Assembly: GCA_964419305.1 (NCBI GenBank)
Contig: CAYQPD010000002.1
Span: forward strand, 1 to 60,862
DNA: 60,862 nucleotides
Direction of reading: 5' to 3'
Source of the DNA: an uncultured Rhodobacter sp.
Lineage (GTDB): Bacteria; Pseudomonadota; Alphaproteobacteria; Rhodobacterales; Rhodobacteraceae
Below the pieces are notes generated by a model. The model was not told where the DNA came from. It did not search any database and saw only the letters and a program-made list of their open reading frames with translations. Shown piece by piece: positions 3,621 through 39,432 of this stretch; within the stretch, counting starts at the first letter, position 1; every line of letters begins with the position of its first letter. A program made the position numbers and the translations under genes.

Positions 3621-4199
3621 ATGTTGTTCAACCGCTCTACTTTGCTGGCAGCGTTGGCGTCTCTGGCGCTGGCTGGGGCTGCCTTGGCCGCCCCCGTGAG
3701 CTATGCGCTGGACGCCACCGCTTCGGTGGTGGGGTTCGAGACCGACTTCGGCCCCGATCGCATCACCGGCCAGATGCCGGTGACCCGCGCCGATCTGACC
3801 CTCGACTTTGCCCATGTCGCGCGCAGCACAGTGACGGTCACCCTGGACGCCTCGGCGGCGGTGGCAAGCTTTCCCTTTGCCGCGCAAGCGATGCGGGGGC
3901 CCAAGGTGCTTGACACCGCGCAGTATCCGCAGATCGGGTTTCAAAGCTCTTCGGTCAGGACCGAAGGCGACGGCGCGCGGGTGGACGGCCAGGTGACAAT
4001 CAGGGGCGCAACCCGACCGATGGTGCTGCACGCCACGATCTGGCGCCAGCAGGGATCGGTCGCGACCGATCTGAGCCACCTGGTGATCCGCCTGACCGGG
4101 GCGGTCAACCGCAGCGACTTTGGTGCCACCGGCTGGGCCGACATGGTGGGCGATGAGGTCCGGCTCGATATTGTGGCCCGGATCATGCAGGTGCCCTAG
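3621..4199 (+). CDS. YceI family periplasmic protein
   Basis: ORF track. Signal peptide (LAGAALA/AP). YceI-like sequence over the full length. Followed immediately by a cytochrome b561 gene, the classic yceI-yceJ pairing. Confidence 0.8.
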   Translation: MLFNRSTLLAALASLALAGAALAAPVSYALDATASVVGFETDFGPDRITGQMPVTRADLTLDFAHVARSTVTVTLDASAAVASFPFAAQAMRGPKVLDTAQYPQIGFQSSSVRTEGDGARVDGQVTIRGATRPMVLHATIWRQQGSVATDLSHLVIRLTGAVNRSDFGATGWADMVGDEVRLDIVARIMQVP

Positions 4200-4748
4200 G
4201 TGGCAGGCTGGCGCAATACCCCCGACAGCTTTGGCCGCACCAGCCGCCTGCTGCACTGGGCCATGGCGATTGGCGTGCTGGGGATGCTGGGCCTTGGCAC
4301 TTGGGTGCACTGGATGCAGCCAAACCTTTCCAACCTCTGGCTTTACGGGCTGCACAAGACGATTGGCCTCAGCCTGCTGGCGCTGGTGCTGATGCGGCTG
4401 GCCTGGCACCGGATCAGCCCGCCCCCGGCCCCGCTCGGTGCCCCCCAGGGATGGGAGGTGCTGGCGGCGCGGCTGGCGCATCGCACCATCTACGTTCTGC
4501 TGCTGGCGATACCGCTTTCGGGCTGGGTCGCCAGCTCGGCCACCGGGCTTGACGTGATGGTGTTCGACACCTGGGTGGTGCCCCGCATCACGCCAGTGTC
4601 AGAGCTGTGGGAAAAGCGCGGCTTTGCGGTGCATGGCGTGCTGACCAAGCTGTTGGCCGCGCTGCTGGTGGTGCATGTCGCGGCGGCGTTGCGGCGCGCC
4701 CGGGCCGGCGACGGCACCCTGCGCCGGATGATCCGGGGCAGGGCCTGA
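4200..4748 (+). CDS. Cytochrome b561 family (CybB-like) membrane protein
   Basis: ORF track. GTG start directly after the yceI TAG. SRLLHWAMAIGVLG and HKTIGLSLLALVLMRLAWH carry the conserved His residues. About 4 TM helices. Confidence 0.75.
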   Translation: MAGWRNTPDSFGRTSRLLHWAMAIGVLGMLGLGTWVHWMQPNLSNLWLYGLHKTIGLSLLALVLMRLAWHRISPPPAPLGAPQGWEVLAARLAHRTIYVLLLAIPLSGWVASSATGLDVMVFDTWVVPRITPVSELWEKRGFAVHGVLTKLLAALLVVHVAAALRRARAGDGTLRRMIRGRA

Positions 4749-4815: not shown

Positions 4816-5139
4816 ATGATCCTTTACGGCCTTGCCACCTGCGACACCTGCAAGAAGGCGCTCAAGGCGCTGCACGCGGCGGATCACAGCGTCACTTTCC
4901 GCGACATCCGCGCCGAGCCGCTGACAGCGGCGGAAATCGCCGCCCTGGTGGGCGAGTTCGGCGACCGCATCATCAACCGCAACTCGACCACCTGGCGCGG
5001 GCTCAACGTCTGGATGAAGAACTCGGACCCCGAGGCCCAGCTTGCCGCCTATCCCGCCCTGATGCAGCGCCCGGTGATTTGCCGCGACGGCCACTATACC
5101 ATCGGCTGGGACGCGGCGGTGCAGGCGCGCTACCTCTGA
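4816..5139 (+). CDS. ArsC/Spx-family (YffB-like) thioredoxin-fold protein
   Basis: ORF track. The N-terminus MILYGLATCDTCKKA and the 107-aa length are typical of the ArsC/YffB family. The 3' end overlaps the convergent DoxX gene by 10 nt. Confidence 0.75.
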   Translation: MILYGLATCDTCKKALKALHAADHSVTFRDIRAEPLTAAEIAALVGEFGDRIINRNSTTWRGLNVWMKNSDPEAQLAAYPALMQRPVICRDGHYTIGWDAAVQARYL

Positions 5140-5675
5140 GCGCCGCCGCGCCCGCCAAGCAGCCGATCGAGTGACAACGGCCCCGCCCCTTTGAGCACCA
5201 GCACCGCCAGCAGCACCAGCCACAGCGCCCGCTGATCAAGGATCAGCGACCCCGATGCGCCATCAAACCACGCCCCCAGATCGTCGCCCGCCACCCCATG
5301 CCCGACCACATCGGTCAGGCTTTGCACGGCGATGAAGCCGATCATGCCAAGCGCCGCCAGCCGGGTCAGCAGCCCCAGCACGATCAGCAGCGGCAGGGCG
5401 AACTCGGCCCAGGTTCCGGCCACCACCACGAGGCGGTGATAAAGCCCAAGCTGGCTGAAATCATAGCCCGCAGCCTCGACCACGCGCGGGAAAATCTGGA
5501 TGTAGGCCCCGGCCGAAGGGGTCAGCACCCCGTCGAACTTGGTGCTGGCCGAGGACCAGAAATAGACCAGCAGCACCCCGGCAAACACCAGCCGCGCCAG
5601 CGTCGGCAGCACCACCGGGGCCAGTGCGTCCAGCCCGCACGCCAACGCGCGATAGAGTGAAATCAGCAGATTCAT
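5130..5675 (-). CDS. DoxX family membrane protein (BufD/GigT-like)
   Basis: ORF track. Multi-TM DoxX-like sequence. Its ATG overlaps the stop of the DUF2063 gene (ATGA at 5672-5675). Confidence 0.75.
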   Translation of the reverse strand: MNLLISLYRALACGLDALAPVVLPTLARLVFAGVLLVYFWSSASTKFDGVLTPSAGAYIQIFPRVVEAAGYDFSQLGLYHRLVVVAGTWAEFALPLLIVLGLLTRLAALGMIGFIAVQSLTDVVGHGVAGDDLGAWFDGASGSLILDQRALWLVLLAVLVLKGAGPLSLDRLLGGRGGAQR

Positions 5676-6418
5676 TCCTTGACCCCTTGCAGATCGACAA
5701 TTGCGCCACCGCCCAGCAACAGCGCCAGCGTGGCACTCAGATCGTGCCCTTCACCGGCCTGATCCATCGCCTCGCCCACCGACGCACCCGCCAGCAGCGC
5801 TGCAACGAAATCTCCCGCCCCCGGCCCCAGCAGGTGCGGCGCGGGATCGAACTCGGGGCGCAGCACCACCACGCTTTCGGGCCGGATGACCGGCGGGCGG
5901 GCATCACCGCCACCCGTATTGGCACGCCAGATGGCATGGATCGGCCAGTCCGAGCACACCAGCCGCAGCGCCGGGGCCAACCCCAGCCGGGCGGCAAGAA
6001 AATCCTCGGGCGGAAGATCCGCCAGCCGCGCAGCGGCCACGGCGGGGCGGTCGGCGGCATGATATGATTGGCGCAACGCCAGTTCGAGCCGCGCCACATC
6101 GGGCAGATAGGGCAGACCTGCTACCGGCGCGAATTGCGCCAGAAATTCCGGCATGGCCGCGCCGTAAAGCATCATGATCCGGCTCTGCGGCGGGTGGGCG
6201 CGCAGGAAAACCCCGGCCATCGCGGTAAAGAATTCGGCCCCCACCAAGCGGCGCAGCACCGGAAAACCGGCTTCCAGCGCCTCGGTCAGCCCGACCGCCA
6301 CATTGTTGCGGTAAACCGCAAAGCGCTTGCCCGCCGGGCGACCCTGCGGGTCGATCAGCCCCTCCGGCACGGCGCGGGCGGAATCGAGCAGCGCAGCGCG
6401 GAACTCGGCCTCGCTCAT
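5672..6418 (-). CDS. bufC: DUF2063 protein, MNIO partner (BufC/GigB-like)
   Basis: ORF track. The N-terminal region [48 protein letters not shown] is typical of DUF2063. ATGA overlap with the upstream DUF692 gene (6415-6418). Confidence 0.75.
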
Positions 6419-7269
6419 GCCCCGACCCCGGCCAGAGCCGCCGCCGCGCGCGCGGCTTCGGCGGCCAGCACCGGCCAGTCGGGCACCTCGTTATCCCATT
6501 CGATCAGGGTCGGCTTGACGCCGCCAAGTGCCAAGGTGCGGGCGTAAAGCGCCCAGACCGGATCCACCACCGCGCGGCTGTGACTGTCGATCAGCAGCGG
6601 CGCGCCATGATCGTCGGCCTCGACCACATGCCCGCCAAGATGAATCTCGCCCACCAGATGCAGCGGGAAAGCGGCAATGTAGGCATAGGGATCGAAACCC
6701 TGATTGACAGCCGAGATATGGACGTTGTTGACATCCAGCAGCAGGCCGCAGCCGGTGCGGCGCGCGACCTCGGTCAGAAAATCCACCTCGCCCATCTCGG
6801 CGTCACTGAAGGCCAGATAGGCCGAGGGGTTTTCCAAGAGCATCCGCCGCCCCAGCACATCCTGCACCTGATCAATGTGATCCGCCACCCGCGCCAGCGT
6901 GGCCGCCGTGTAGGGCAGCGGCAGCAGATCGTTGAAATAGGCCCCGTCATGGGTGGACCAGGCCAGATGCTCGGAAAAGCTGGCCGGGCGCAGCCAGTCG
7001 CACAGATGTTTCAGGCGCTGAAGATGGCCTTCGTCAAGCGGCCCCTCGCCGCCGATCGACAGGCCCACCCCATGGGCGGAAATCGCAAAGCGCTCAGCCA
7101 GATGACGCAGTTGCGCCAGCGGGCGGCCACCGTCGCCGAGATAGTTTTCGGCGTGAATCTCGAACCACTCGACCGGCGCGGGATCGGCCAGGATGGAAGC
7201 GAAATGCTGCGGCTTGTAGCCCACCCCGGCACCGGGCGGCAAACCATCAGCGCCGACGGTATCACGCAT
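6415..7269 (-). CDS. bufB: DUF692/UPF0276 multinuclear non-heme iron oxidase (MbnB-like MNIO; BufB/GigA-like)
   Basis: ORF track. GVGYKPQHF...[11 protein letters not shown]... and later HLGGH / DSH motifs are typical of DUF692. GAGGA RBS 7 nt upstream. Confidence 0.85.
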
Positions 7270-7282
7270 CAGTCAGTCCTCG

Positions 7283-7317
7283 AAAAACTGCCCCCCCGGA
7301 CCGAAGTCCGAAGGGGC
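7283..7317 (-). terminator. Intrinsic terminator/attenuator hairpin between the precursor genes and the MNIO gene
   Basis: Minus-strand RNA reads GCCCCUUCGGAC-UUCG-GUCCGGGGGGGC: a 12-bp stem including 2 G.U pairs, with a UUCG tetraloop. It is followed by AGUUUUUC. It starts 10 nt after the precursor stop (7327) and lies upstream of the bufB RBS. Confidence 0.6.
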
Positions 7318-7326
7318 GGTGCAACC

Positions 7327-7623
7327 TCACGCCGGCAGATCGCGGTCAAGTGCTTCAAGCGACCCGGTGCGGGCATCCGGCAGCTCGATCGTGGCGCAGG
7401 TGCCGGCCGGGACCAGCTTCCACGAATTGCCCTGATAGTCAACTTTCGAGGTGCCCGCACAAGTGGTGCCAGCCCCTGCGGCGCAATCGTTCTGCCCGGC
7501 CAGCGCCACGCCGAAGCATTTCTCCATCGGCATATCCTCGGCCGCAGCCGAAGTGATGAAATGGCCCGACAGCGCGGCGGCCAGCGCCCCGGCGACGGCA
7601 AGCGACTTTACGGTGTTGGACAT
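7327..7623 (-). CDS. bufA: DUF2282-type bufferin precursor (BufA1/GigP-like), promoter-distal copy
   Basis: ORF track, 98 aa. Sec signal peptide ending SAAA/ED. Core [49 protein letters not shown] with Cys at 36, 47, 55 and 76. AGGAG RBS. Confidence 0.8.
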
Positions 7624-7663
7624 CGGTTTACTCCTGATTCAAGTTGCTAAGGATTGCAGGCGA

Positions 7664-7960
7664 TCAGCTCTGCGGCAGATCGCGGTCAAGCGCTTCGAGC
7701 GAACCCACACGGCTGTCGGGCAACTCGATGGTGGCGCAGGTTCCAACCGGAACCAGCTTGAACTCGTTGCCCTGATAGTCAACCTTCGAGGTTCCCGCAC
7801 AGGTGGTGCCAGCGCCAGCCGCGCAATCATTCTGACCCGCCAGGGCCACGCCAAAGCATTTTTCCTTGGCATCTTCAGCCGAAGCCGGGGTGATGAAATG
7901 CGCCGACAGCGCGGCGGCGAGCGCCCCGGCGACAGCGAGAGTCTTGACGTGATTTGACAT
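7664..7960 (-). CDS. bufA: DUF2282-type bufferin precursor (BufA1/GigP-like), promoter-proximal copy
   Basis: ORF track, 98 aa. Sec signal peptide ending PASA/ED. Same core with Cys at 35, 46, 54 and 75. AGGGGA RBS. Confidence 0.8.
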
Positions 7961-7988
7961 GAAATTCCCCTGAGTTGGTCGTCGCCGG

Positions 7989-8017
7989 ATGCGACATGGC
8001 CATTCTTACCCGGTCAA
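7989..8017 (-). promoter_or_regulatory. Candidate sigma70-type promoter of the precursor operon (weak)
   Basis: On the minus strand, TTGACC, then 17 nt, then TCGCAT, about 30-55 nt upstream of the ATG at 7960. The -10 is poor, so this is tentative. Confidence 0.2.
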
Positions 8018-8109
8018 TTCGCTTGCATCCACTCACATAACCGTGCGGCACGATGGCGTGACTAACTGAAATAAAACAACTATTTTTGCAAACCAAGTGT
8101 AACGAGATG

Positions 8110-8131
8110 AAAAAGCGCCGAGTAGCGGCAC
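8110..8131 (-). terminator. Probable weak intrinsic terminator after thrS
   Basis: Minus strand reads GUGCCG-CUACU-CGGCGC (6-bp stem with one G.U) followed by UUUUU, about 27 nt after the thrS TAA. A T5 run on the + strand flanks the other side. Confidence 0.4.
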
Positions 8132-8157
8132 TTTTTATTCGGAATCAAGGATTTATC

Positions 8158-10104
8158 TTAGCGCTGGTCGGGGGCACGCGCCTCGGCGGCAAGCTGCACC
8201 AGAATTTCGGCCAGGCTTGCGCTGTCGGTGCGGGTCTCGCCCAGGCGGCGGACCGAGACCGAACGCTCGGCCACCTCGCGTTGCCCGATCGCCAGGATCA
8301 CCGGCACCTTGCCGACCGAATGTTCGCGCACCTTGTAGTTGATCTTCTCGTTGCGCACGTCGGCCTCGGCGCGCAACCCCAAGCCGCGCAAGCCCGCCAC
8401 GATTTCCTGCACGTAAGCGTCGGCGTCCGACACGATCGAGGCCACCACCACCTGCCGCGGGGCCAGCCAGAACGGCAGCTTGCCGGCGTAATGTTCGATC
8501 AAGATGCCGATGAAGCGCTCGAAACTGCCCAGGATGGCGCGGTGCAGCATGTAGGGGCGGTGTTTGGCCCCATCTTCGCCGATGTATTCGGCGTCCAGCC
8601 GGGTCGGCAGGTTGCCGTCAACCTGAAAGGTGCCGCACTGCCACTTGCGCCCGATCGCATCGGTCAGCTTGAAATCAAGCTTGGGCCCGTAGAACGCGCC
8701 CTCGCCGGGATCGACCTCGTAGGCGTTGCCGGTGTGGCGGATCGCCTGCTCCAGCGCCGACTCGAGCATGTCCCAGGTTTCATCCGATCCGATCCGCACC
8801 GCAGGCCGGGTTGACAGCTTGATCTCGAACGTCTCGAACCCAAGGTCGCGGTAGATGCTGGACAGCAGCGTGATGAAATCGGCGCATTCCGACTCGATCT
8901 GGTCGGCGGTGCAGAAGATATGGGCATCGTCCTGGGTAAAGCCGCGCACCCGCATCAGCCCGTGCATCGAGCCCGAGGATTCGTAGCGGTGGCAGGAACC
9001 GAATTCCGCCAGCCGCAGCGGCAGGTCGCGGTAGCTTTTCAGGCCCTGATTATAGACCTGCACATGGCAGGGGCAGTTCATCGGCTTCAGCGCGTTGATG
9101 CGCTTTTCCTTGGCGCCTTCTTCATCGACCTCGACGATGAACATGTTCTCGCGGTAGGCCTCCCAGTGGCCCGACTTTTCCCACAGCACCCGGTCCACCA
9201 CTTGCGGGGTGCGGATTTCCTTGTAGCCCGCCGCGCGCTGACGGCGGCGCATGTAGTCTTCCAGCGTGCGGTAGATCGACCAGCCGTTGGGGTGCCAGAA
9301 CACCATGCCGGGGGCTTCTTCCTGCAAATGGAACAGCTCCATTTCCTTGCCCAGACGGCGGTGGTCGCGCTTGGCGGCCTCTTCCAGCATGGTCAGATGG
9401 GCCTTCAGATCGTCACGGTTGCGGAACGCCACGCCGTAGATGCGCTGCAACATCGGGCGGTTGGAATCGCCGCGCCAATAGGCCCCGGCCACGCTCATCA
9501 GCTTGAAGGCATCGGCGGGCACCTGGCCGGTGTGTTGCAGATGCGGCCCGCGGCAGAGGTCTTGCCAGTGCCCGTGCCAATACATCCGCAGCGGTTCATC
9601 GCCGGGAATGCCGGCGATCAGCTCGACCTTGAACGGCTCGCCCCGTTGTTCGTAATAGGCTATTGCCGCCGGACGCTCCCAGACCTCGGTGTGAACAACG
9701 TCGCGCAAGTTGATGATTTCCTTCATGCGCTTTTCGATGGCACCAAGGTCTTCGGGGGTAAAAGGTTCGATTCTGTCAAAATCGTAATACCAGCCATCCT
9801 TGATCACCGGCCCGATCGTGACCTTGACCTCGGGCCAGATCTCCTGCACCGCCCGCGCCATGATGTGGGCAAGGTCGTGGCGGATCAGTTCCAGCGCCGG
9901 GGCGTCATCGTGCATGGTGTGGATGCTGATGCTGGCGTCGGTGGTGATCGGCCATTGCAGATCGTAATGCGCGCCGTTGACCGTGGCCGAAATCGCCTTC
10001 TTGGCCAGACTGGTCGAGATCAAAGCCGCCACTTCGGCAGCCGTGCTGCCGGCGGCAAAACTGCGGCTGGCACCATCGGGAAAGGTCAGGGAAATCTGGG
10101 CCAT
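8158..10104 (-). CDS. thrS: Threonine--tRNA ligase
   Basis: ORF 8158..10176 trimmed to ATG 10104 ([11 protein letters not shown]...). Full-length ThrS similarity covers the TGS, editing, class II core and anticodon-binding regions. Confidence 0.95.
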
Positions 10105-13359: not shown

Positions 13360-15153
13360 ATGACAACCAAAGACGTTGATGCAGAGGCCCGGCTGGCCCG
13401 TCTGAACGCCAATCTGGCCAAGGTTGACACCCTCTCGAAGCGGCTTGCAGCCGCCATGACGCAACGTAAATCGGTTGATCAGGCGCTGAATGGCCCCAGT
13501 GACGAGCTTTATCTCAAGGCTGCCACCGCCTATGTGGCAGAAATGATGCAGAACCCGGCAAAGATTCTGGAACACCAGATCGGCTACTGGGGCAAGAGCC
13601 TGAAACACTATGTCGAGGCCCAGCAGGCACTATCTAAAGGCGAGTTGAAAGCCCCGCCCGATCCGACCCCCAAGGACAAGCGATTCGCCAACCCGCTGTG
13701 GGAGACCCACCCCTTCTTCAACTATCTCAAGCAGCAATACCTGCTGAACGCCGAGGCCATCACCGGCGCGGTGGCGGGGCTGGATAACCTTGAGGCCGCC
13801 GACCGCAAGCGGCTTGAATATTTCTCGCGCCAGATCGTGGACATGTTCGCGCCAACCAATTTTCTTGGCACCAACCCCGACGCGCTGGAACGCGCGGTCG
13901 AAACCGATGGCGAAAGCCTGGTGCAGGGGCTGGAAAATCTGGTGCGCGACATCGAGGCCAACAACGGCAATCTGCTGGTGACGCTGGCCGATCAGCACGC
14001 CTTCACGGTGGGTCAGAACCTGGGCACCAGCCCCGGCGCTGTGGTTTACCGCAACAAGATGCTCGAGCTGATCCAGTATGCACCAACCACGCCGACGGTG
14101 CACACGACCCCCCTGCTGATCTTTCCGCCGTGGATCAACAAGTTCTACATTCTCGATCTCAAACCCGAAAACAGCCTGATCAAGTGGATCGTCGATCAGG
14201 GCTACACCCTGTTCGTGGTCAGTTGGGTCAACCCGGATGCCTCTTATGCCGAGGTCGGCATGGATGACTACATCCGCGACGGCTATCTGCGCGCCATGGC
14301 CGAGGTGCGCCGCATCACCGGCGAGGAGCAGATCAACGTGGTTGGTTACTGCATCGCGGGCACCACCCTGGCGCTGACCCTGGCGCACCTGGAACGGGCG
14401 GGCGACACCACGGTCAAATCCGCCACCTTCTTCACCACCCTGACCGATTTTTCCGATCCGGGTGAAGTGGGCGTCTTTCTCGACAATGATTTTGTCGATG
14501 GCATCGAGCGTCAGGCGGCGGTGGACGGGGTGCTGGCCAAGACCTTCATGTCGCGCACCTTCAGCTTTCTGCGCTCGAATGATCTGATCTACCAGCCTGC
14601 GATCAAAAGCTACATGATGGGCGAGGCACCCCCGGCCTTCGATCTGCTTTACTGGAACGGCGACGGCACCAACCTGCCGGCCAGGATGGCGGTCGAATAC
14701 CTGCGCGGCCTGTGCCAGCGCGACGATTTCGCGCAAGGTCGCTTTCCGGTATTCGGCAAGCCGGTCGGCCCGGCCATGATCACCTTGCCGATCTGCGCCA
14801 TCGCCTGCGAGACTGACCATATCGCGGCCTGGAAAAGCTCGTATAACGGCTTCACGCGTTTTGCCTCGACCGACAAGACCTTCATCCTGTCGCAGTCGGG
14901 CCATATCGCGGGCATCGTCAATCCGCCCACCAAGAACAAGTATGGCCACTACACCAGCAAGGCCGCGATGACGACGCCAGACGCGTTCAAGGCCGGGGCG
15001 ACCTTTCATCAGGGCTCGTGGTGGCCACGCTGGGAAAAATGGCTGGCCAGGCGCGCGGGCGCGATGATTCCCGCCCGCATCCCCGGTGATTCGACCAACC
15101 CGGTGCTGGCCCCGGCCCCCGGCACCTACGTTAGTGCAACGCCAACCCCCTGA
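13360..15153 (+). CDS. phaC: Class I poly(R)-hydroxyalkanoate synthase
   Basis: ORF track, 597 aa. Lipase-box-like GYCIAG. AGAGGGA RBS. Full-length PhaC similarity. Confidence 0.95.
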   Translation: MTTKDVDAEARLARLNANLAKVDTLSKRLAAAMTQRKSVDQALNGPSDELYLKAATAYVAEMMQNPAKILEHQIGYWGKSLKHYVEAQQALSKGELKAPPDPTPKDKRFANPLWETHPFFNYLKQQYLLNAEAITGAVAGLDNLEAADRKRLEYFSRQIVDMFAPTNFLGTNPDALERAVETDGESLVQGLENLVRDIEANNGNLLVTLADQHAFTVGQNLGTSPGAVVYRNKMLELIQYAPTTPTVHTTPLLIFPPWINKFYILDLKPENSLIKWIVDQGYTLFVVSWVNPDASYAEVGMDDYIRDGYLRAMAEVRRITGEEQINVVGYCIAGTTLALTLAHLERAGDTTVKSATFFTTLTDFSDPGEVGVFLDNDFVDGIERQAAVDGVLAKTFMSRTFSFLRSNDLIYQPAIKSYMMGEAPPAFDLLYWNGDGTNLPARMAVEYLRGLCQRDDFAQGRFPVFGKPVGPAMITLPICAIACETDHIAAWKSSYNGFTRFASTDKTFILSQSGHIAGIVNPPTKNKYGHYTSKAAMTTPDAFKAGATFHQGSWWPRWEKWLARRAGAMIPARIPGDSTNPVLAPAPGTYVSATPTP

Positions 15154-15199
15154 TCTTTCGTGATGTTCTTGCCCGCCCCCGGCACAACTCAGGGAAATG

Positions 15200-15238
15200 C
15201 TGCACCGCAGAAATTTTACTTGCAATTCTGCAGTGCAG
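15200..15238. promoter_or_regulatory. Two PhaR-type boxes (CTGC-N3-GCAG) upstream of phaP
   Basis: CTGCaccGCAG (15200-15210) and CTGCagtGCAG (15228-15238). They sit inside a larger inverted repeat GCTGCAC(C/T)GCAGAA with 14-nt arms (15199-15212 and 15226-15239). The second box ends 56 nt upstream of the phaP ATG. Confidence 0.6.
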
Positions 15239-15294
15239 CATCTATATAGGGTGCATCAGAACACCGGACCGACCCGGACATATGGAGCAAGCAA

Positions 15295-15747
15295 ATGACC
15301 AAGAACACCGACTTCACCAAAGTCATGCAAGACATGATGGCCTCTTTCCCGGTTGACACCGCGGCCCTGCAAAACGCCTTCAAGACCCAATCGGCGATGG
15401 CCGAGAAGTTCTCGAAAGTGGCGCTGGAAGCCGCCGAGAAATCGACCGAAGTCACCGCCAAGTGGACCAAGGACACCATCGCCAAGCTGGCCGATGCCTC
15501 GAAGGCCAAGGCCGAACCGACCGATTACGCCAAGGCGATCAGCGATTTCACTTCGGCCGCCACCGAAATGACCGCCGAAAATCTGGCCTCCTTCGCCGAA
15601 ATCGCGAAGAAGGTTCAGATGGAAACCGTCGAGCTGATGCTGGCGGCCGGCAAGGACATCTCGGAAGATGCCACCGCTGCGGTCAAGAAGGCCACCGTCG
15701 AAGTCAGCAACGTCGCCAAGAAGGCCGCCGCTGCCGCCGCGAAGTGA
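15295..15747 (+). CDS. phaP: Phasin (PHA granule-associated protein)
   Basis: ORF track. Ala/Lys/Glu-rich helical phasin-like sequence. GGAG RBS. Position between phaC and phaR. Confidence 0.85.
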   Translation: MTKNTDFTKVMQDMMASFPVDTAALQNAFKTQSAMAEKFSKVALEAAEKSTEVTAKWTKDTIAKLADASKAKAEPTDYAKAISDFTSAATEMTAENLASFAEIAKKVQMETVELMLAAGKDISEDATAAVKKATVEVSNVAKKAAAAAAK

Positions 15748-15796
15748 TCTGACGATCAGCCGCGTCCGTCCCATCCTCCCTGGGACAAGATGCGCG

Positions 15797-15826
15797 GGGC
15801 GGGCCTTGTGCCCGCCCTTTCTTTTT
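15797..15826 (+). terminator. Intrinsic terminator after phaP
   Basis: GGGCGGGC-cttgt-GCCCGCCC followed by TTTCTTTTT. Confidence 0.7.
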
Positions 15827-15876
15827 GGAACCACCTGCCCTAGGATTGCTGCACAAGCAAAAAACAGGGGGGCCAG

Positions 15877-16437
15877 ATGGCCAAGACCGCAAAGCCGCTG
15901 CTGATCAAGCGCTATGCCAGCCGCAGGCTTTATAACACCGACACCAGCGACTACGTGACGCTGGAAGACATTGCCGGCTTCATCCGCGCCGGGCGCGAAG
16001 TGCAGATCATCGACCTCAAGACCGGCGACGACCTGACCCGCCAGTATCTCTTGCAGATCGTGGCCGAACACGAGAGCAAGGGCGAAAACGTGTTGCCGGT
16101 GGCGTTGCTGATGGATCTGGTGCGCAGCTATACCACCGAAGTGCAAAGCGTGGTGCCGCAGTTTCTGGCGACCTCGTTCGAGATGTTGCGCAGCGGGCAA
16201 TCGAAAATCATCGAGAACCTGACCGGCCTGCCCAATCCGCTGGCCGCGATGCCGGGCTTTGATGTGATGCGCAAGCAGCAGGCAGCCTTCATGAAAACCA
16301 TGATGGTCGGCGTGCCGGGCTGGACCGCCCCCGATTCCGAGCCCGAAGAAGCCCCTGCCGACCCGACGCCGGCCGACGAGCTGGCCGAGATTCGCAAGGA
16401 ACTGGCGGAGTTGCAGAAAAAACTCGCCAGGCTCTGA
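15877..16437 (+). CDS. phaR: PHA synthesis repressor PhaR
   Basis: ORF track. The N-terminus LLIKRYASRRLYNTDTSDYVTLEDIAGFIRAGREVQIID is characteristic of PhaR. An imperfect box CTGCacaAGCA lies at 15849-15859 upstream. Confidence 0.9.
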   Translation: MAKTAKPLLIKRYASRRLYNTDTSDYVTLEDIAGFIRAGREVQIIDLKTGDDLTRQYLLQIVAEHESKGENVLPVALLMDLVRSYTTEVQSVVPQFLATSFEMLRSGQSKIIENLTGLPNPLAAMPGFDVMRKQQAAFMKTMMVGVPGWTAPDSEPEEAPADPTPADELAEIRKELAELQKKLARL

Positions 16438-16457: not shown

Positions 16458-17435
16458 ATGCGCGAAGCACAGGGCCGGGTGACACTGTGGGGTATCGAGG
16501 TCTTTCTGGCGGCCGCCGAAGAGGGCGCAATTTCCGCCGCCGCCCGGCGGCTGGGGGTCAGTTCCTCGACCGTCAGCCAGCAGTTGGCGGGGCTTGAGGC
16601 GGCGCTTGGCGCGCCCCTGCTCGATCGCGCCAGCCGCCCGATGCAGACCACCCCCGCCGGGGCGATGTTTCGCCGCCACGCCCAGACCATCCTCAACGCC
16701 GCCTCCGAGGCCCGCGCCGAACTGGCGGTGGCCGAGATGTCGGGGCTGACCACGCTGCGGCTGGGGGTGATCGAGGATCTCGATGCCAATGTGACCCCGC
16801 ACCTGCTGGCGGCGCTGGCCGAAGGTCTGCGCGGCTGCCGGTTTTTGCTGGAAACCGGGGCCAGCCACCGCCTGCTCGATCAGCTTGATGCCCGCGCCCT
16901 TGATCTGGTGGTGGCGGCCGATCTGGGGGCCGCGCCGGGCAATGATGGTGATCTGATCGAGGTCTATCCGGTGCTGGTCGAGCCTTTCGTGGTGGCCTGC
17001 CCGCGCGGCGCGATCCCCGCCGGGGCCGACATCGCCAGCGCCGTGCAGGCGCTGCCGCTGATCCTTTATTCGACCCGCCATCACATGGGGCGCCAGATTG
17101 CGGCGCATCTGGCGCGGCTGAACCTGCATCTTGCGCACCGTTTTGAGCTCGACAGCTATCACGCAATCCTTGCGATGGTCGCCGAGGGGGCGGGCTGGAC
17201 CATTCTCACGCCGCTGGCGCTGCAACATGCGCAGCGCTTTCAGGCCGGGGTGGATGTCTGGCCGCTGCCCTTTGCGCCGCTTGAACGCACGATTGCGCTT
17301 TCGGCCCGCGCCGGGGTGCTGCGCGAAGTGCCGGGACAGGTGGCGGCGCAGTTGCGCGCCCTGTTGCAGGACCAGGTGGTCGCCCCGGCGCTGGCCGCGC
17401 TGCCTTGGCTGCAGGGCAAGCTGCGGGTGCTTTAG
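16458..17435 (+). CDS. LysR family transcriptional regulator
   Basis: ORF track. N-terminal HTH FLAAAEEGAISAAARRLGVSSSTVSQQLAGLE plus a LysR substrate-binding domain. Converges on the DegT-like gene with a 4-nt overlap. Confidence 0.85.
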   Translation: MREAQGRVTLWGIEVFLAAAEEGAISAAARRLGVSSSTVSQQLAGLEAALGAPLLDRASRPMQTTPAGAMFRRHAQTILNAASEARAELAVAEMSGLTTLRLGVIEDLDANVTPHLLAALAEGLRGCRFLLETGASHRLLDQLDARALDLVVAADLGAAPGNDGDLIEVYPVLVEPFVVACPRGAIPAGADIASAVQALPLILYSTRHHMGRQIAAHLARLNLHLAHRFELDSYHAILAMVAEGAGWTILTPLALQHAQRFQAGVDVWPLPFAPLERTIALSARAGVLREVPGQVAAQLRALLQDQVVAPALAALPWLQGKLRVL

Positions 17436-27208: not shown

Positions 27209-27970
27209 TCAGGTGGGATGCTCAGGCGGGGGCGGCACCGGCTGCGCCAGATAGGCCGCCGCCGGGATGCTGACCAGCCCGCGCAAACCCAGCGCCTGCC
27301 GGTCATCGTCGGCCATCCCGGCCAGCGCCGCGGCGATCGCGGCGAACAGCACCGCAGGGTCATGGCCCAGGGCGGTGATATAGGGCAGGCCCGGCGTCGG
27401 GGCGGTGCGCGCCACCTCACGCAGCGTCGCCGTCAGGCCGCCGTCATGGCGCTGCATCAGCCGCCAGGTCACGGCATCAATGGCCGCCAGATCGGCGCGC
27501 GCTGAAGCCACCGCCACCGCCGACTGCCGGTGCCCGCCGCTGCGCAGGGTTGGACGCAAGGCCAGCCCAAGCCCCGCCACATGACTGTGCGCCGCCGCCC
27601 AGCCCGATTGCGACAGCGCGTCGTTATAGGCAAACCGGCCAGCCATCAGCCCGGCAAGGTTGCGCGGATCATCCGCCCGCGCCACCAGAACGCTGCAATA
27701 ATAGCCGGGCTTGCAGCCCGCCACCGCGAAATCCGGGGTGCCGACCAGCGTCACCTTGCCATGCAGCCGGGTGCGGTAGGGCAGGCCGCAGGTCTGCGCC
27801 AGCACCAGATCGGGCGCGGTCCAAAGCGGCCAGAGATCATCTGCCCCCCGGCTCAGCGCATCCGGGGCGGCCATGCCCGCCGCGCGCAACTGATCCCGGA
27901 TCGCCCCCCAGTAGCGGTCGTTGGCCGGGGCCAGCGCGGCCCGGTCATACATCGGCAGCGCGGCGATCAT
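27209..27970 (-). CDS. PhnD/SsuA-like substrate-binding-fold protein without an obvious signal peptide
   Basis: ORF 27209..28102 trimmed to ATG 27970 (MIAALPMYD...), which forms an ATGA overlap with the TerB gene stop (27967-27970). Resembles phosphonate-binding-domain family proteins. Confidence 0.6.
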   Translation of the reverse strand: MIAALPMYDRAALAPANDRYWGAIRDQLRAAGMAAPDALSRGADDLWPLWTAPDLVLAQTCGLPYRTRLHGKVTLVGTPDFAVAGCKPGYYCSVLVARADDPRNLAGLMAGRFAYNDALSQSGWAAAHSHVAGLGLALRPTLRSGGHRQSAVAVASARADLAAIDAVTWRLMQRHDGGLTATLREVARTAPTPGLPYITALGHDPAVLFAAIAAALAGMADDDRQALGLRGLVSIPAAAYLAQPVPPPPEHPT

Positions 27971-28410
27971 CGCCCGGCACGCTCGACGGTCTGCCGCGCC
28001 AAGGCACTGTCGCGGTCGGTCAGCCCCAGCAGGTTGGCCACCAGCCGCAGCACCTGCTCTTCTTCCGCCGCGCGCGCGCCGTCGGCCAGTGCCACCGCCC
28101 ACAGCGCCTGCATCAGCCCGGCGCGATCCTCATGCGGCACCGCCGATTTCAGCGCGCGGGTAAAGCGCACCGTGTCGGGAGCCGCGGCCTCAAGCTGCTC
28201 GGCCTCGGCCCGCAGCGCGGCAGCGGCAAACGGCGACAAGCCATAGCGCCCGGCCAGCACCCGGTCGATCCGGGCGGCCTCGGATGGGGTGTAAACATGG
28301 TCGGCCCGCGCCACCCGCACCAGCAGCGCCGCCAGCGCCAGGCGCGCCTCGGGGTCTGGCAGACGGGTGGGGGCGGGGGCCGCAAGGCGGCGGAGCAACG
28401 ACTCGAACAT
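27967..28410 (-). CDS. TerB family (tellurite-resistance-like) protein
   Basis: ORF 27967..28509 trimmed to ATG 28410 (MFESLLRRL...); the upstream part overlaps the palindrome region. LALAALLVRVARAD... and LWAVALADG...EEEQVLRLVANLLG fit the TerB pattern. Confidence 0.7.
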   Translation of the reverse strand: MFESLLRRLAAPAPTRLPDPEARLALAALLVRVARADHVYTPSEAARIDRVLAGRYGLSPFAAAALRAEAEQLEAAAPDTVRFTRALKSAVPHEDRAGLMQALWAVALADGARAAEEEQVLRLVANLLGLTDRDSALARQTVERAGR

Positions 28411-28498
28411 CAGGCGGATATAGGCCGCGCGCGCAACGCTGGCCAGCCCCGCGGCGCGGGAGTGGAAGGTTGACGTTGCTGGGAACCATCGGCACCAG

Positions 28499-28570
28499 CC
28501 GCTCGTCACTCCCTTGCGGTCTTTCCTCGCTGGCGCAAGCGAAGAACGACCGCAAGGGAGTGATGAGCGG
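28499..28570. repeat. 72-nt near-perfect palindrome (23-nt arms, 1 mismatch)
   Basis: CCGCTCGTCACTCCCTTGCGGTC (28499-28521) pairs with GACCGCAAGGGAGTGATGAGCGG (28548-28570). The 26-nt spacer itself contains TCGCT..AGCGA. Both strands therefore encode the mirrored peptide ASEERPQGSDER seen in two ORF-track entries. Confidence 0.85.
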
Positions 28571-28586
28571 GCGAAGGAACCGAAGA

Positions 28587-28880
28587 TCAGCCGTCCCAGC
28601 CCTCGACGATCACCAGATCGGCCACGGATACCGGGTCACGCAACGCCTTTGCCGCCTGATATTCCGGGCTGTCATAGCAGGCCATCGCGGTGGCAAGGCT
28701 GTCGAACTCGATCACCACCACCCGGCTGCGCGCGGCGCCCTCGCGCACCACGCCGGCCCCGCCCCGCACCAGAAACCGCGCGCCATATTTGGCAAAGGCC
28801 GCCGCATTGGCTTGGCGATAAGCCGCGTAGGCGCCTGGGTCGTGAACATCGACCTGCGCCACCCAATAGCCCTTGGTCAT
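28587..28880 (-). CDS. DUF1330 domain protein
   Basis: ORF 28587..28988 trimmed to ATG 28880 (MTKGYWVAQVDVHDP...), which forms an ATGA overlap with the upstream stop (28877-28880). Confidence 0.75.
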   Translation of the reverse strand: MTKGYWVAQVDVHDPGAYAAYRQANAAAFAKYGARFLVRGGAGVVREGAARSRVVVIEFDSLATAMACYDSPEYQAAKALRDPVSVADLVIVEGWDG

Positions 28881-29791
28881 CCTGCCCCCCCTTCCGGCAC
28901 CGCGATCCAGCCCGACGAGACCGCCACCGCCGCGCCCTTGATGCGCACCGCCTCGATCCCGTCGGTGCCGTGCTCGACCGTCAACCACATCGTGCTGGGG
29001 CGGCCCATCTCGACCCCCTGCGCCAGCGCGAATACCTGCGGCCCCGGCGGCAAGGCCCGCGATGCCCGAAGCTGTGCGGCCAGGATCGCGGCGGCCGAGC
29101 CAGTGGCGGGGTCTTCAAATATCCCGCTGCCAAAGCCAAACAGCCGCGCCTGAAAATCGACGCCTGCGCCGGGGGTGTAAAGATAGGCACTGTCCACCCC
29201 GGCGCGGTCCATCAGATCCGACCAATGGGGCTCCAGCGGCCAGGCCCGCGCCAGCGCGTCAAGGCTGGCCACCGGCACGTAGAGAAACCCCACCCCACCC
29301 TGCCACAGCGCGATGCGGTGGTGGCCAAAGCCCAGATCATCAGGCGCAAGGTCCAGCGCTCGCGCCACCAGCGCGGGCGGGGCAGCACCCGGTGCGGCGT
29401 GCGGGATGACGGGTGCGGTGAACTCGGCCTCGGTCACGTCGCCCCGGCGCGACACCGTCACCGGCACCAAGCCCGCCGCTTCCTCCAGCACCAGAGTCGC
29501 GTCGAAATCCCCCGCCCCCTGAGCCGTGCCCGCCAACAGAACAGCACAGCCGATGGTGGGATGACCAGCAAAGGGCAGCTCGGACGCAGGCGTGAAAATC
29601 CGCACCCTGGCCGCGTGGGCCGGGTCATCGGGGCGCGCCACAAAGATCGTCTCCGACAGGGCAAACTCGCGCGCCATCGCCTGCATCTGCCCCGGCGTCA
29701 GCCCCTCGGCCCCCAGCACCACCGCCAGCGGATTACCCGCGAACGGGTGGGTGGTGAACACATCGAAGGTATGAAATTCCAGCGCCGTCAT
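28877..29791 (-). CDS. PhzF family isomerase-like protein
   Basis: ORF 28877..30022 trimmed to ATG 29791 (MTALEFHTFDVFT...FAGNPLAVV...SETIF...FAGHPTIG), which forms an ATGA overlap with the rlmJ stop (29788-29791). Confidence 0.85.
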   Translation of the reverse strand: MTALEFHTFDVFTTHPFAGNPLAVVLGAEGLTPGQMQAMAREFALSETIFVARPDDPAHAARVRIFTPASELPFAGHPTIGCAVLLAGTAQGAGDFDATLVLEEAAGLVPVTVSRRGDVTEAEFTAPVIPHAAPGAAPPALVARALDLAPDDLGFGHHRIALWQGGVGFLYVPVASLDALARAWPLEPHWSDLMDRAGVDSAYLYTPGAGVDFQARLFGFGSGIFEDPATGSAAAILAAQLRASRALPPGPQVFALAQGVEMGRPSTMWLTVEHGTDGIEAVRIKGAAVAVSSGWIAVPEGGAG

Positions 29792-38964: not shown

Positions 38965-39321
38965 TCAGTAAAGCTGCCAGCCCTCGTCGTCCTCGGGTTC
39001 GAGCGGGCCAATCGCGGTCCAGTCGGCACGGATGCGGGCGACACGGGTATCGCCCCAGGTCTTGAACACCAGATCGAACCCGGTGGTGGTCACGTTCTCG
39101 GACGAAATGTCGGCGCGCGCATTGGTCTGCTGATCGAGATCCCACATCGAGATGGCAACCAGCACCGTCGGGGGCGCAAGAAAAGCCTGCTCGAAGACCA
39201 CGCCATGGCGACGTTCGCGCGGACCGTGGCCGGTCCACATCACGCCGCCATCGGCGAAATCGGAAAACAGCACCCGACTGCCCTGTGCGATTCCGATGCT
39301 GCCACTGGTGATCCGTTTCAC
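38965..39321 (-). CDS. Small H-type lectin domain-like protein
   Basis: ORF 38965..39414 trimmed to GTG 39321, which has a GAGGGA RBS 6 nt upstream; the longer form would include the atpC terminator. The pattern ...FEQAFLAPPTVLVAISMWD...NVTTTGFDLVFKTWGDTRVARIRADWTAIG resembles H-type lectin domains. Recalled from memory, not searched. Confidence 0.55.
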   Translation of the reverse strand: MKRITSGSIGIAQGSRVLFSDFADGGVMWTGHGPRERRHGVVFEQAFLAPPTVLVAISMWDLDQQTNARADISSENVTTTGFDLVFKTWGDTRVARIRADWTAIGPLEPEDDEGWQLY

Positions 39322-39383
39322 GCCCGTTCCCTCAAGCTGACGCAAGAATACCTGCCAAACACGGCAATAATTCGGCCAGATAG

Positions 39384-39410
39384 CAAAAAGGCCCCGAACC
39401 ATCGGGGCCT
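39384..39410 (-). terminator. Intrinsic terminator after atpC
   Basis: Minus strand reads AGGCCCCGA-UGGU-UCGGGGCCU followed by UUUUUGC, 23 nt after the atpC stop. Confidence 0.8.
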
Positions 39411-39432
39411 TCACGACACAATCCTAGCAAAT

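Follow-up and report, generated by a model that had tools for sequence, protein, structure and literature searches.

In a stretch of 60,862 nucleotides (nt) of DNA from an uncultured Rhodobacter sp. (assembly GCA_964419305.1, contig CAYQPD010000002.1, positions 1 to 60,862 of the forward strand), which we call the window, five co-directional genes on the minus strand occupy positions 7960 to 5130. They encode, in the order of transcription, two small DUF2282 precursor proteins (bufA-a and bufA-b), an enzyme of the MNIO family (bufB), a DUF2063 partner protein (bufC) and a DoxX-family membrane protein (bufD). We put the probability that these genes form a two-substrate Buf1-type bufferin gene cluster, i.e. 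a cluster for peptides that are made by the ribosome and modified after translation (RiPPs) of the captophorin class, at roughly 0.85. ATGA start/stop overlaps, read directly in the sequence, connect bufB with bufC (6415-6418) and bufC with bufD (5672-5675); bufC appears to be translationally coupled to bufB, and bufD to bufC. The three genes without an upstream overlap are each preceded by a Shine-Dalgarno sequence at normal spacing, which for bufA-b is its own AGGAG.

Both precursors are 98 amino acids long and match Pfam family DUF2282 (PF10048; cut-off 22.4 bits), with 88.5 bits (E = 2.7e-25) for bufA-a (7664-7960, minus strand) and 92.2 bits (E = 1.9e-26) for bufA-b (7327-7623, minus strand). 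Inspection and hydropathy (a Lys-containing N-region, a hydrophobic core and A-x-A before ED) predict a Sec signal peptide at residues 1-28, ending in PASA/ED in bufA-a and SAAA/ED in bufA-b. The 70-residue core that follows has cysteines at 7, 18, 26 and 47 in bufA-a and at 8, 19, 27 and 48 in bufA-b, and the spacing of 11, 8 and 21 in both is that of Caulobacter vibrioides BufA1 (Cys12/23/31/52). From this correspondence, we infer that the outer pair forms a disulfide and that the inner pair is the target of modification. The predicted monoisotopic masses of the mature peptides are 7176.35 and 7147.25 Da, as compared to 7186.43 and 7157.33 Da for the signal-cleaved peptides without modification. 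A sequence search of the PDB with BufA gave no meaningful match.

The product of bufB (6415-7269, minus strand; 284 amino acids) matches the Pfam family MbnB_TglH_ChrH with 350.7 bits (E = 5.8e-105, cut-off 25). It also clears the cut-off of NF050167, the NCBIfam equivalog model for an ‘MNIO family bufferin maturase’ (374.2 vs 310 bits), and stays below the NCBIfam cut-offs of the HvfB (236 vs 360), ApyH, MbnB (52 vs 325) and ChrH equivalogs. Since it passes this one model and misses all the other MNIO equivalogs, the enzyme is specifically of the BufB type. Its closest solved structure is 3BWW (E = 3e-41). Alignments to 3BWW and 8HCI_D show that it keeps H66, H101, E146, D179, N182, H210, D228, H230 and E257; for the ligands of sites 1 and 2, we take the assignment to follow that in MbnB structures. 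N182, D228 and H230 align with the site-3 residues N175, D242 and H244 of HvfB, whose mutation abolishes activity (10.64898/2026.07.17.739211).

Of the components, BufC (5672-6418, minus strand; 248 amino acids) was the one least tested, since a curated model covers no more than its first 93 residues (Pfam DUF2063, residues 4-93; 89.5 bits, E = 1.8e-25, cut-off 27.2). A search of the PDB with the single sequence gave no match, a sequence profile of 26 homologues gave only a weak match to TglI (E = 0.075), and the HvfC model scored 37 bits against a cut-off of 142. An AlphaFold2 model from the single sequence was unusable (predicted local distance difference test, pLDDT, 43.5); one built from a 68-sequence alignment reached a pLDDT of 94.8 and a predicted template modelling (TM) score of 0.90. 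When this model was compared with the PDB using Foldseek, it matched TglI (8HCI_A; E = 5.6e-6, TM score 0.60, probability 1.00) and NGO1945 (3DEE; E = 2.3e-3, TM score 0.52/0.62, probability 1.00), and there was no other match below E = 0.1. TglI is the partner of the MNIO TglH, and 3DEE is used as the reference structure for DUF2063 (‘PME1’) partners (PMC13097082). The predicted structure of BufC thus matches the fold of MNIO partners (PME1/TglI). RefSeq homologues that are 64-66% identical to BufC, from Rhodobacter ferrooxidans and Defluviimonas, are named ‘HvfC/BufC N-terminal domain-containing protein’, and current annotation models would label both the enzyme and the partner automatically. 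The last gene, bufD (5130-5675, minus strand), encodes a DoxX-family protein of 181 amino acids with about four hydrophobic segments by hydropathy (Pfam 30.8 bits, cut-off 23.6); its similarity to the HvfX model is weak and below the cut-off (34 vs 80 bits).

A first-pass annotation of this DNA had already called the five genes, with these coordinates and overlaps and with 98 residues for each precursor, and had assigned them to DUF2282, DUF692/MNIO (citing the WFEIHAENY motif, which is present), DUF2063 and DoxX. The open reading frames (ORFs), the sequence and the family matches bear out this description, including the Sec-type signals with their A-x-A sites and the four cysteines in a near-identical core, which we see in both precursors. 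The two family matches that it had named as decisive, DUF2282 for the small proteins and DUF692/MNIO for 6415-7269, both came out positive, and the scores lie well outside what chance would give. Its comparison of the locus and its chemistry to the gig operon of Cupriavidus and the buf1 operon of Caulobacter likewise agrees with published work (PMC11626156). Leprevost et al. (2024) characterized buf1ABCD of C. vibrioides, which consists of the same four families in the same order, and identified the gold-induced gig operons as the same system (PMC11626156). In Caulobacter, the precursor leaves the cytoplasm via Sec, a disulfide links its two outermost cysteines, and the MNIO and DUF2063 pair converts the two central cysteines into 5-thiooxazoles, with a loss of 4.03 Da each, so that mature bufferin 1 is a -10 Da product (PMC11626156). 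The purified peptide binds Cu(I) and Cu(II) through its thiooxazoles, and DoxX is not essential (PMC11626156). The shared families, gene order and cysteine spacing support the bufferin interpretation, and make the system a member of a well-populated family.

This also means that the first-pass annotation overrated the locus in presenting it as the content of a novel system. Antoine et al. (2025) catalogued thousands of Buf1 clusters with a core of precursor, MNIO, DUF2063 and DoxX, and noted both tandem precursor genes and, in some clusters, sigma factor and NrsF genes (PMC12452194). Gadgil et al. (2026) group these systems as ‘captophorins’ (PMC13097082), there are curated models for them, and within Rhodobacterales the operon is close to universal. 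The statement that no Rhodobacterales member is known to have been studied stands, in that we found no paper on one in the literature searched. Beyond the published work consulted lie three features: the rarity of the tandem precursor pair in this clade, a stem-loop after the precursors, and a 29-bp dyad in place of a SigF promoter. The stem-loop and the regulon suggested by the dyad are leads rather than results.

Conservation of the locus and the tandem precursors

Scanning one genome per species yielded 273 confirmed relatives of BufB. The best 80 of these (69-80% identity) nearly all carry names of Rhodobacterales (Pseudorhodobacter, Roseovarius, Nioella, Albidovulum, Actibacterium, Marivita and others), with a few labelled merely as Alphaproteobacteria or Pseudomonadota. 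The order thrS, bufA, bufB, bufC, bufD is kept in 80/80 loci. This invariant arrangement indicates that the operon is a vertically inherited core locus of Rhodobacterales, and not an island.

A convergent gene for an ArsC/Spx-family protein is usually next in the relatives. In the window, this gene (4816-5139, plus strand), which encodes a thioredoxin-fold protein with an N-terminal CDTC motif, converges on bufD with a 10-nt overlap of the 3′ ends. Most relatives keep it in synteny with the operon, often with a cspA-type or small membrane-protein gene between them. We considered the resulting gap of ~450 nt between bufD and the arsC-like gene as a part of the system, and rejected it since it holds these unrelated genes. 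Just past the arsC-like gene, genes for a YceI-like periplasmic protein and a cytochrome b561 lie back to back (3621-4748, plus strand; junction at 4199/4200), a pairing that is common.

Aligned over 99 positions, the two precursors are identical at 84, and their genes are 80% identical as DNA. Their codons differ by 32 synonymous and 13 non-synonymous changes, i.e. 13 substituted positions, to which two terminal single-residue indels are added. The amino acid differences lie mainly in the signal peptide, the N-terminus of the mature peptide (EDAKEK in bufA-a, EDMPMEK in bufA-b), a Glu-Phe (bufA-a) versus Ser-Trp (bufA-b) pair, which gives bufA-b a Trp in place of Phe, and the C-terminal tail. 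The stretch around the two central cysteines is identical, and the core from first to last Cys is almost invariant. The DNA identity of 80% and the excess of synonymous changes indicate that the duplication is not recent and that both copies are under purifying selection.

Both precursors are identical to proteins of the metagenome-assembled genome ‘Rhodobacteraceae bacterium CG2_30_10_405’ (OIQ05009.1 and OIQ05008.1), where they carry generic DUF names; bufA-a is also identical to NCO17264.1, and close relatives of the precursors are labelled Pseudorhodobacter. A tandem pair is present in only 3 of the 76 relatives that could be assessed (L014, L050 and L075). Four genomes carry a pair, and in three of them each copy is closer to its partner than to any other copy, by only 1-4 percentage points; the copy in L014, for example, is 85% identical to its paralogue versus 84% to a copy from another genome. 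Margins of this size are compatible both with independent duplication and with gene conversion. A further reading takes bufA-b for a redundant duplicate, or for one in decay, with only one peptide made and modified. The rarity of tandem pairs does indicate that one copy is clearly enough, but we consider this reading very improbable, given that both copies are full length, with an intact signal peptide, four cysteines and a ribosome-binding site of their own, that they differ mainly by synonymous changes and have an almost invariant core, and that both lie upstream of the stem-loop described below.

The 29-bp dyad, the putative promoter and the stem-loop

Upstream of bufA-a, at 8033-8061, lies a 29-bp dyad that reads TCACGCCATCGTGCCGCACGGTTATGTGA on the minus strand. 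It agrees at 17 of 18 specified positions with a consensus common to the upstream regions of the relatives, which is the perfect dyad TCACG-N4-CGTG-N3-CACG-N4-CGTGA. It consists of two 14-bp TCAC-N6-GTGA palindromes in tandem, at a spacing of 15 bp, with conserved half-sites (T.ACA and GTGA) flanking them. Within the 60.8 kb of the window, this site is the sole match with at most three mismatches (0.04 expected). A match of at least 15/18 occurs upstream of bufA in 60 of 81 related loci, and all matches of at least 16/18 in ~0.9 Mb of related sequence lie upstream of bufA. We infer that the dyad is a putative operator of the buf promoter, to which a protein would bind.

The dyad is abutted by a putative promoter (8004-8032, minus strand) with a -35-like GTGGAT (8032-8027), a 17-nt spacer and a -10-like GTAAGA (8009-8004). 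The relatives have TTGGCC-N17-GCTAnnnT at the same offset from the dyad, a pattern that we presume to resemble alphaproteobacterial sigma-70 promoters. A scan for sigma-70 promoters of the Escherichia coli type found none, and the candidate rests on its position and on conservation of the alphaproteobacterial type. Farther downstream, the 5′ leader contains a small hairpin (7981-7995, minus strand; GTCGC-N5-GCGAC), followed by the ribosome-binding site GGGGA (7970-7966). The alignment of relatives shows a conserved ATCGC-N6-GCGAT element. We rejected a structured leader beyond this hairpin, as the predicted fold is no better than that of shuffled sequence (z = +0.67). A known riboswitch or leader was also rejected: an Rfam scan of 5000-8300 at a permissive threshold gave one sub-threshold match, to a small RNA (20.7 vs 270 bits).

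In Caulobacter, the SigF promoter motif is GTAACC-N16-CGAA (PMC3511200). The 197 nt that separate thrS from bufA (7961-8157) do not contain this motif, and its 33 matches in the whole window, with 28 expected, are at chance level. No gene for an extracytoplasmic function (ECF) sigma factor or NrsF lies beside the operon in the 80 relatives or in the window, where the Pfam scan covered about half of the ORFs. Two regulators encoded in the window, an XRE-type helix-turn-helix protein (988-1845) and a LysR regulator (16458-17435), were discarded as candidates for binding the dyad, being distant from the operon and not syntenic with it in the relatives.

The dyad also occurs in front of a different gene. 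The loci behind this observation are L001-L080, for the region upstream of bufA, and also L085, L092, L134, L135, L144, L153 and L154-L161. When metagenome contigs were searched with the exact consensus, 73 loci were found, in 11 of which the context is thrS-bufA. Another six are upstream of a gene for an 80-residue protein with a signal peptide, 11 are at other intergenic sites, and ~45, located in plausible coding ORFs or in tandem repeats, were dismissed as coincidental. In the six, the dyad ends (3′) 96-98 nt upstream of the gene, and the mature protein is 20% Met and 41% charged. Among the other intergenic sites, an exact dyad at L145:1654-1682 is ~150 nt upstream of a likely GTG start on the minus strand; the ORF, which ends at 1107, would encode a secreted protein of ~139 amino acids with two RTQGNNSH...QQSGGP repeats, and may be a regulon member or a coincidence.

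The composition of the 80-residue protein is close to that of the published MrpX, a hypochlorite scavenger with a signal peptide, 20% Met and 44% charged residues, which belongs to the SigF/NrsF regulon of Azospira (PMC4436054). We therefore call the family MrpX-like. Its homologues, collected by protein similarity alone before their contigs were fetched from metagenomes and assemblies, form 19 clusters of secreted proteins of 80-90 amino acids with two cysteines and no Pfam family. The genes include L144:6725-6967 (minus strand), L157:8001-8243 (plus), L154:1339-1590 (plus) and L160:7907-8179 (plus). In three neighbourhoods, beside DsbA, LysE or GST genes, each MrpX-like gene is preceded by a dyad (18/18, 18/18 and 17/18) that starts 95-125 nt upstream of the start codon and has no second copy in the locus. 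Downstream of the dyad comes a third TCAC-N6-GTGA unit. The three neighbourhoods have no regulator in common. PolA places these contigs in an uncultured lineage of Alphaproteobacteria outside Rhodobacterales, with Rhodospirillales, Dongiaceae and Tagaea (62-65% identity) as its nearest named relatives. The dyads at MrpX-like genes and at bufA have so far been observed in different lineages, and not in one genome.

The presence of the same dyad before bufA and before MrpX-like genes suggests a shared stress regulon. In Caulobacter, the SigF/NrsF system drives buf1, buf2 and a yedY/msrP homologue, and the dyad may be the operator of a regulator that fills the SigF/NrsF role in the lineages studied here.

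The remaining element is an intercistronic stem-loop (7284-7317, minus strand) between bufA-b and bufB, which was located by a terminator scan and folding. It has a 12-bp stem with nine G-C pairs and a UUCG loop, and is followed by a run of U-nucleotides. A stem of at least 9 bp starting no more than 70 nt past the bufA stop codon is found in 63 of 70 relatives, as compared to 4.3% of coding-sequence controls. The stem sequences of the relatives are unrelated to one another, so that the structure is conserved and the sequence is not; that unrelated stems occur at the same place argues for selection on structure. The stem-loop would probably raise the level of precursor mRNA over that of enzyme mRNA. 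An excess of precursor over enzyme mRNA is a familiar logic in other RiPP operons. The words ‘terminator’ and ‘stem-loop’ appear nowhere in the main bufferin paper (PMC11626156).

Proposed copper buffering and alternative roles

By homology to Caulobacter, we propose that the iron enzyme BufB and its partner BufC modify both precursors in the cytoplasm, where each of the central cysteines (Cys18/26 of bufA-a and Cys19/27 of bufA-b) would lose four electrons and become a 5-thiooxazole. The peptides would exit via Sec, shed their 28-residue signal peptides and form the disulfide between first and last Cys. The two products of ~7.15-7.18 kDa may then bind periplasmic copper via thiooxazole thiols and nitrogen atoms, and so lower its toxicity, with DoxX probably accessory, as in Caulobacter. 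Transcription would start at the promoter beside the dyad, under the putative counterpart of SigF/NrsF, and the stem-loop would probably keep precursor transcripts above those of the enzyme. A broader proposal, taken as a single claim, is that a new transcription factor acting at the dyad replaces SigF/NrsF in at least two alphaproteobacterial orders, that the conserved stem-loop sets the ratio of precursor to enzyme, and that the result is a copper/oxidant periplasmic regulon, made up of bufferin operons in Rhodobacterales and of MrpX-like Met-rich peptides elsewhere. We hold this proposal tentatively, giving it a little less than an even chance.

Several observations count against the reading of the locus as a two-substrate bufferin cluster with this regulation. 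The operon is in a core position beside a housekeeping gene, outside any metal-resistance island. Metal specificity, inducing signal and product structures are here extrapolated from Caulobacter, which belongs to another order and uses another regulator, and the gig/buf operon of Cupriavidus gives only minor protection (PMC11626156). As for the stem-loop, the whole 74-nt segment does not fold better than GC-matched shuffles (z = -1.49), and a U-tract follows the stem in only 19 of 70 relatives (about 27%), so that the element is probably a partial terminator in some genomes, this one included, and a stabilizer of 3′ ends in others. Finally, an MrpX-like gene has the same dyad, and the published MrpX answers hypochlorite and not copper, so the primary stress could differ.

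This last point leads to the main rival, in which the same modified peptides act chiefly against periplasmic oxidants, reactive chlorine or envelope redox stress rather than copper. The thiol heterocycles and the Met-containing N-terminus of bufA-b would then be sacrificial reductants, working beside an MrpX-like scavenger under the same regulator. In favour of such a role, the dyad precedes genes for exported proteins with 20% Met and 41% charged residues in three contexts, and the operon is a core chromosomal locus outside any metal island. The Azospira regulon, in which MrpX scavenges hypochlorite, is itself induced by hypochlorite and not by H2O2 (PMC4436054), the Caulobacter SigF regulon includes an msrP/yedY homologue in addition to the buf operons, and DoxX homologues have been tied to oxidative or sulphur stress in the literature. 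However, the buf reporters of Caulobacter answer Cu2+, and not Fe, Zn or Mn, and the affinity of purified Buf1 for copper resides in the thiooxazoles (PMC11626156). Furthermore, CC3255 is not induced by H2O2, tert-butyl hydroperoxide, paraquat or diamide. Met-rich periplasmic proteins are also classic Cu(I) binders, and co-regulation with an MrpX-like gene therefore fits copper equally well; the MrpX-like family, which resembles a hypochlorite scavenger, could equally be a Cu(I) binder. We thus regard a primary role against oxidants as unlikely, and copper buffering as the preferred interpretation.

Less likely still is that the peptides are housekeeping carriers, which would supply copper or another metal to cuproenzymes of the periplasm and membrane, or hold it for them, in the way that methanobactin serves methane monooxygenase. 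Vertical conservation that is nearly universal and tied to a single chromosomal position fits a housekeeping role better than an accessory resistance trait, and many of these bacteria need cuproenzymes such as cbb3 oxidase and N2O reductase. Storage or transport roles were also raised as a speculation by the authors of the bufferin work, who found, however, that the Caulobacter peptides stay in the periplasm and are not secreted (PMC11626156). No dedicated importer or TonB-dependent receptor was seen in the buf locus, and the conserved putative operator implies conditional rather than constitutive expression. These points make a carrier role doubtful, and leave buffering of periplasmic copper as the role that we favour.

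As a bufferin operon, the locus adds little, given that published work already covers this family along with its chemistry and distribution. Its conserved dyad, on the other hand, is a concrete DNA bait for a regulator outside the SigF/NrsF paradigm, and the link between the dyad and MrpX-like genes bears on the physiological signal, be it copper, reactive chlorine or both. The tandem precursors offer a simple natural test of one MNIO/partner pair processing two natural substrates. Rhodobacterales are abundant in marine and freshwater systems, and copper buffering as a core trait of the order would matter for the copper tolerance of communities.

Other genes of the window and comparison with known systems

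Three further observations concern genes elsewhere in the window. TerB (tellurite-resistance family) and DUF1330 genes are adjacent at 27967-28988 (minus strand), and are the only other stress-related content among the ORFs scanned. A gene for an H-type lectin domain protein of 149 amino acids (38965-39414, minus strand; E = 3e-22) adjoins the gene for the ATP synthase epsilon subunit, where it is unusual. A polyhydroxyalkanoate cluster (13360-16437, plus strand), with phaC, a 150-residue ORF without assignment and a gene for the regulator PhaR, looks ordinary.

Among characterized systems, the closest to the locus is buf1ABCD of C. vibrioides (CCNA_03363-03366), which likewise encodes a DUF2282 precursor with a Sec signal and a core of ~70 residues, a BufB-type MNIO, a DUF2063 protein and DoxX. 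The two differ in three respects. The C. vibrioides operon has one precursor gene, whereas the window has two in tandem; it is controlled by SigF/NrsF through GTAACC-N16-CGAA, whereas the window locus has the 29-bp dyad and no adjacent sigF or nrsF; and the window locus has a position beside thrS that is fixed across a whole order. The gig operon of Cupriavidus metallidurans and its counterparts in Legionella and Bordetella have the same four-gene architecture and are now classed as Buf1-type clusters. Unlike the window locus, gig-type operons are under the control of metal-responsive ECF sigma factors or BvgAS, and Legionella has up to five Buf1 precursor genes distributed over several loci, as opposed to a single locus with a tandem pair.

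Buf2 systems (BUF_6/12Cys) share the enzyme subfamily, partner and modification of Buf1. Their precursors, however, have 6 or 12 cysteines and no DUF2282 signature, and the Buf2 clusters of Caulobacter are without DoxX; bufA-b scores 16.6 bits with the BufA2 model (cut-off 60). Oxazolin, fontiphorin and gonophorin (HvfABC-type, PMC13097082) also depend on an MNIO and a DUF2063 (PME1) protein, often with DoxX, and have 5-thiooxazoles and a link to copper. They differ in that their precursors, which are thought to bind copper stochastically, contain EGKCG repeats, of which there are none in either precursor of the window. Methanobactin (MbnABC) has in common with the present system MNIO chemistry on cysteine and copper binding, but it is a secreted copper scavenger with an oxazolone-thioamide product, made with MbnC as the partner rather than a DUF2063 protein.

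With respect to regulation, the nearest parallel is the SigF/NrsF regulon of Azospira suillum (PMC4436054). There, a Met-rich peptide of the periplasm is under joint control with the stress system by which Caulobacter also drives its buf operons. The 29-bp dyad is a palindromic putative operator and not an ECF sigma promoter, but it links bufA with MrpX-like genes much as the Azospira regulon does.

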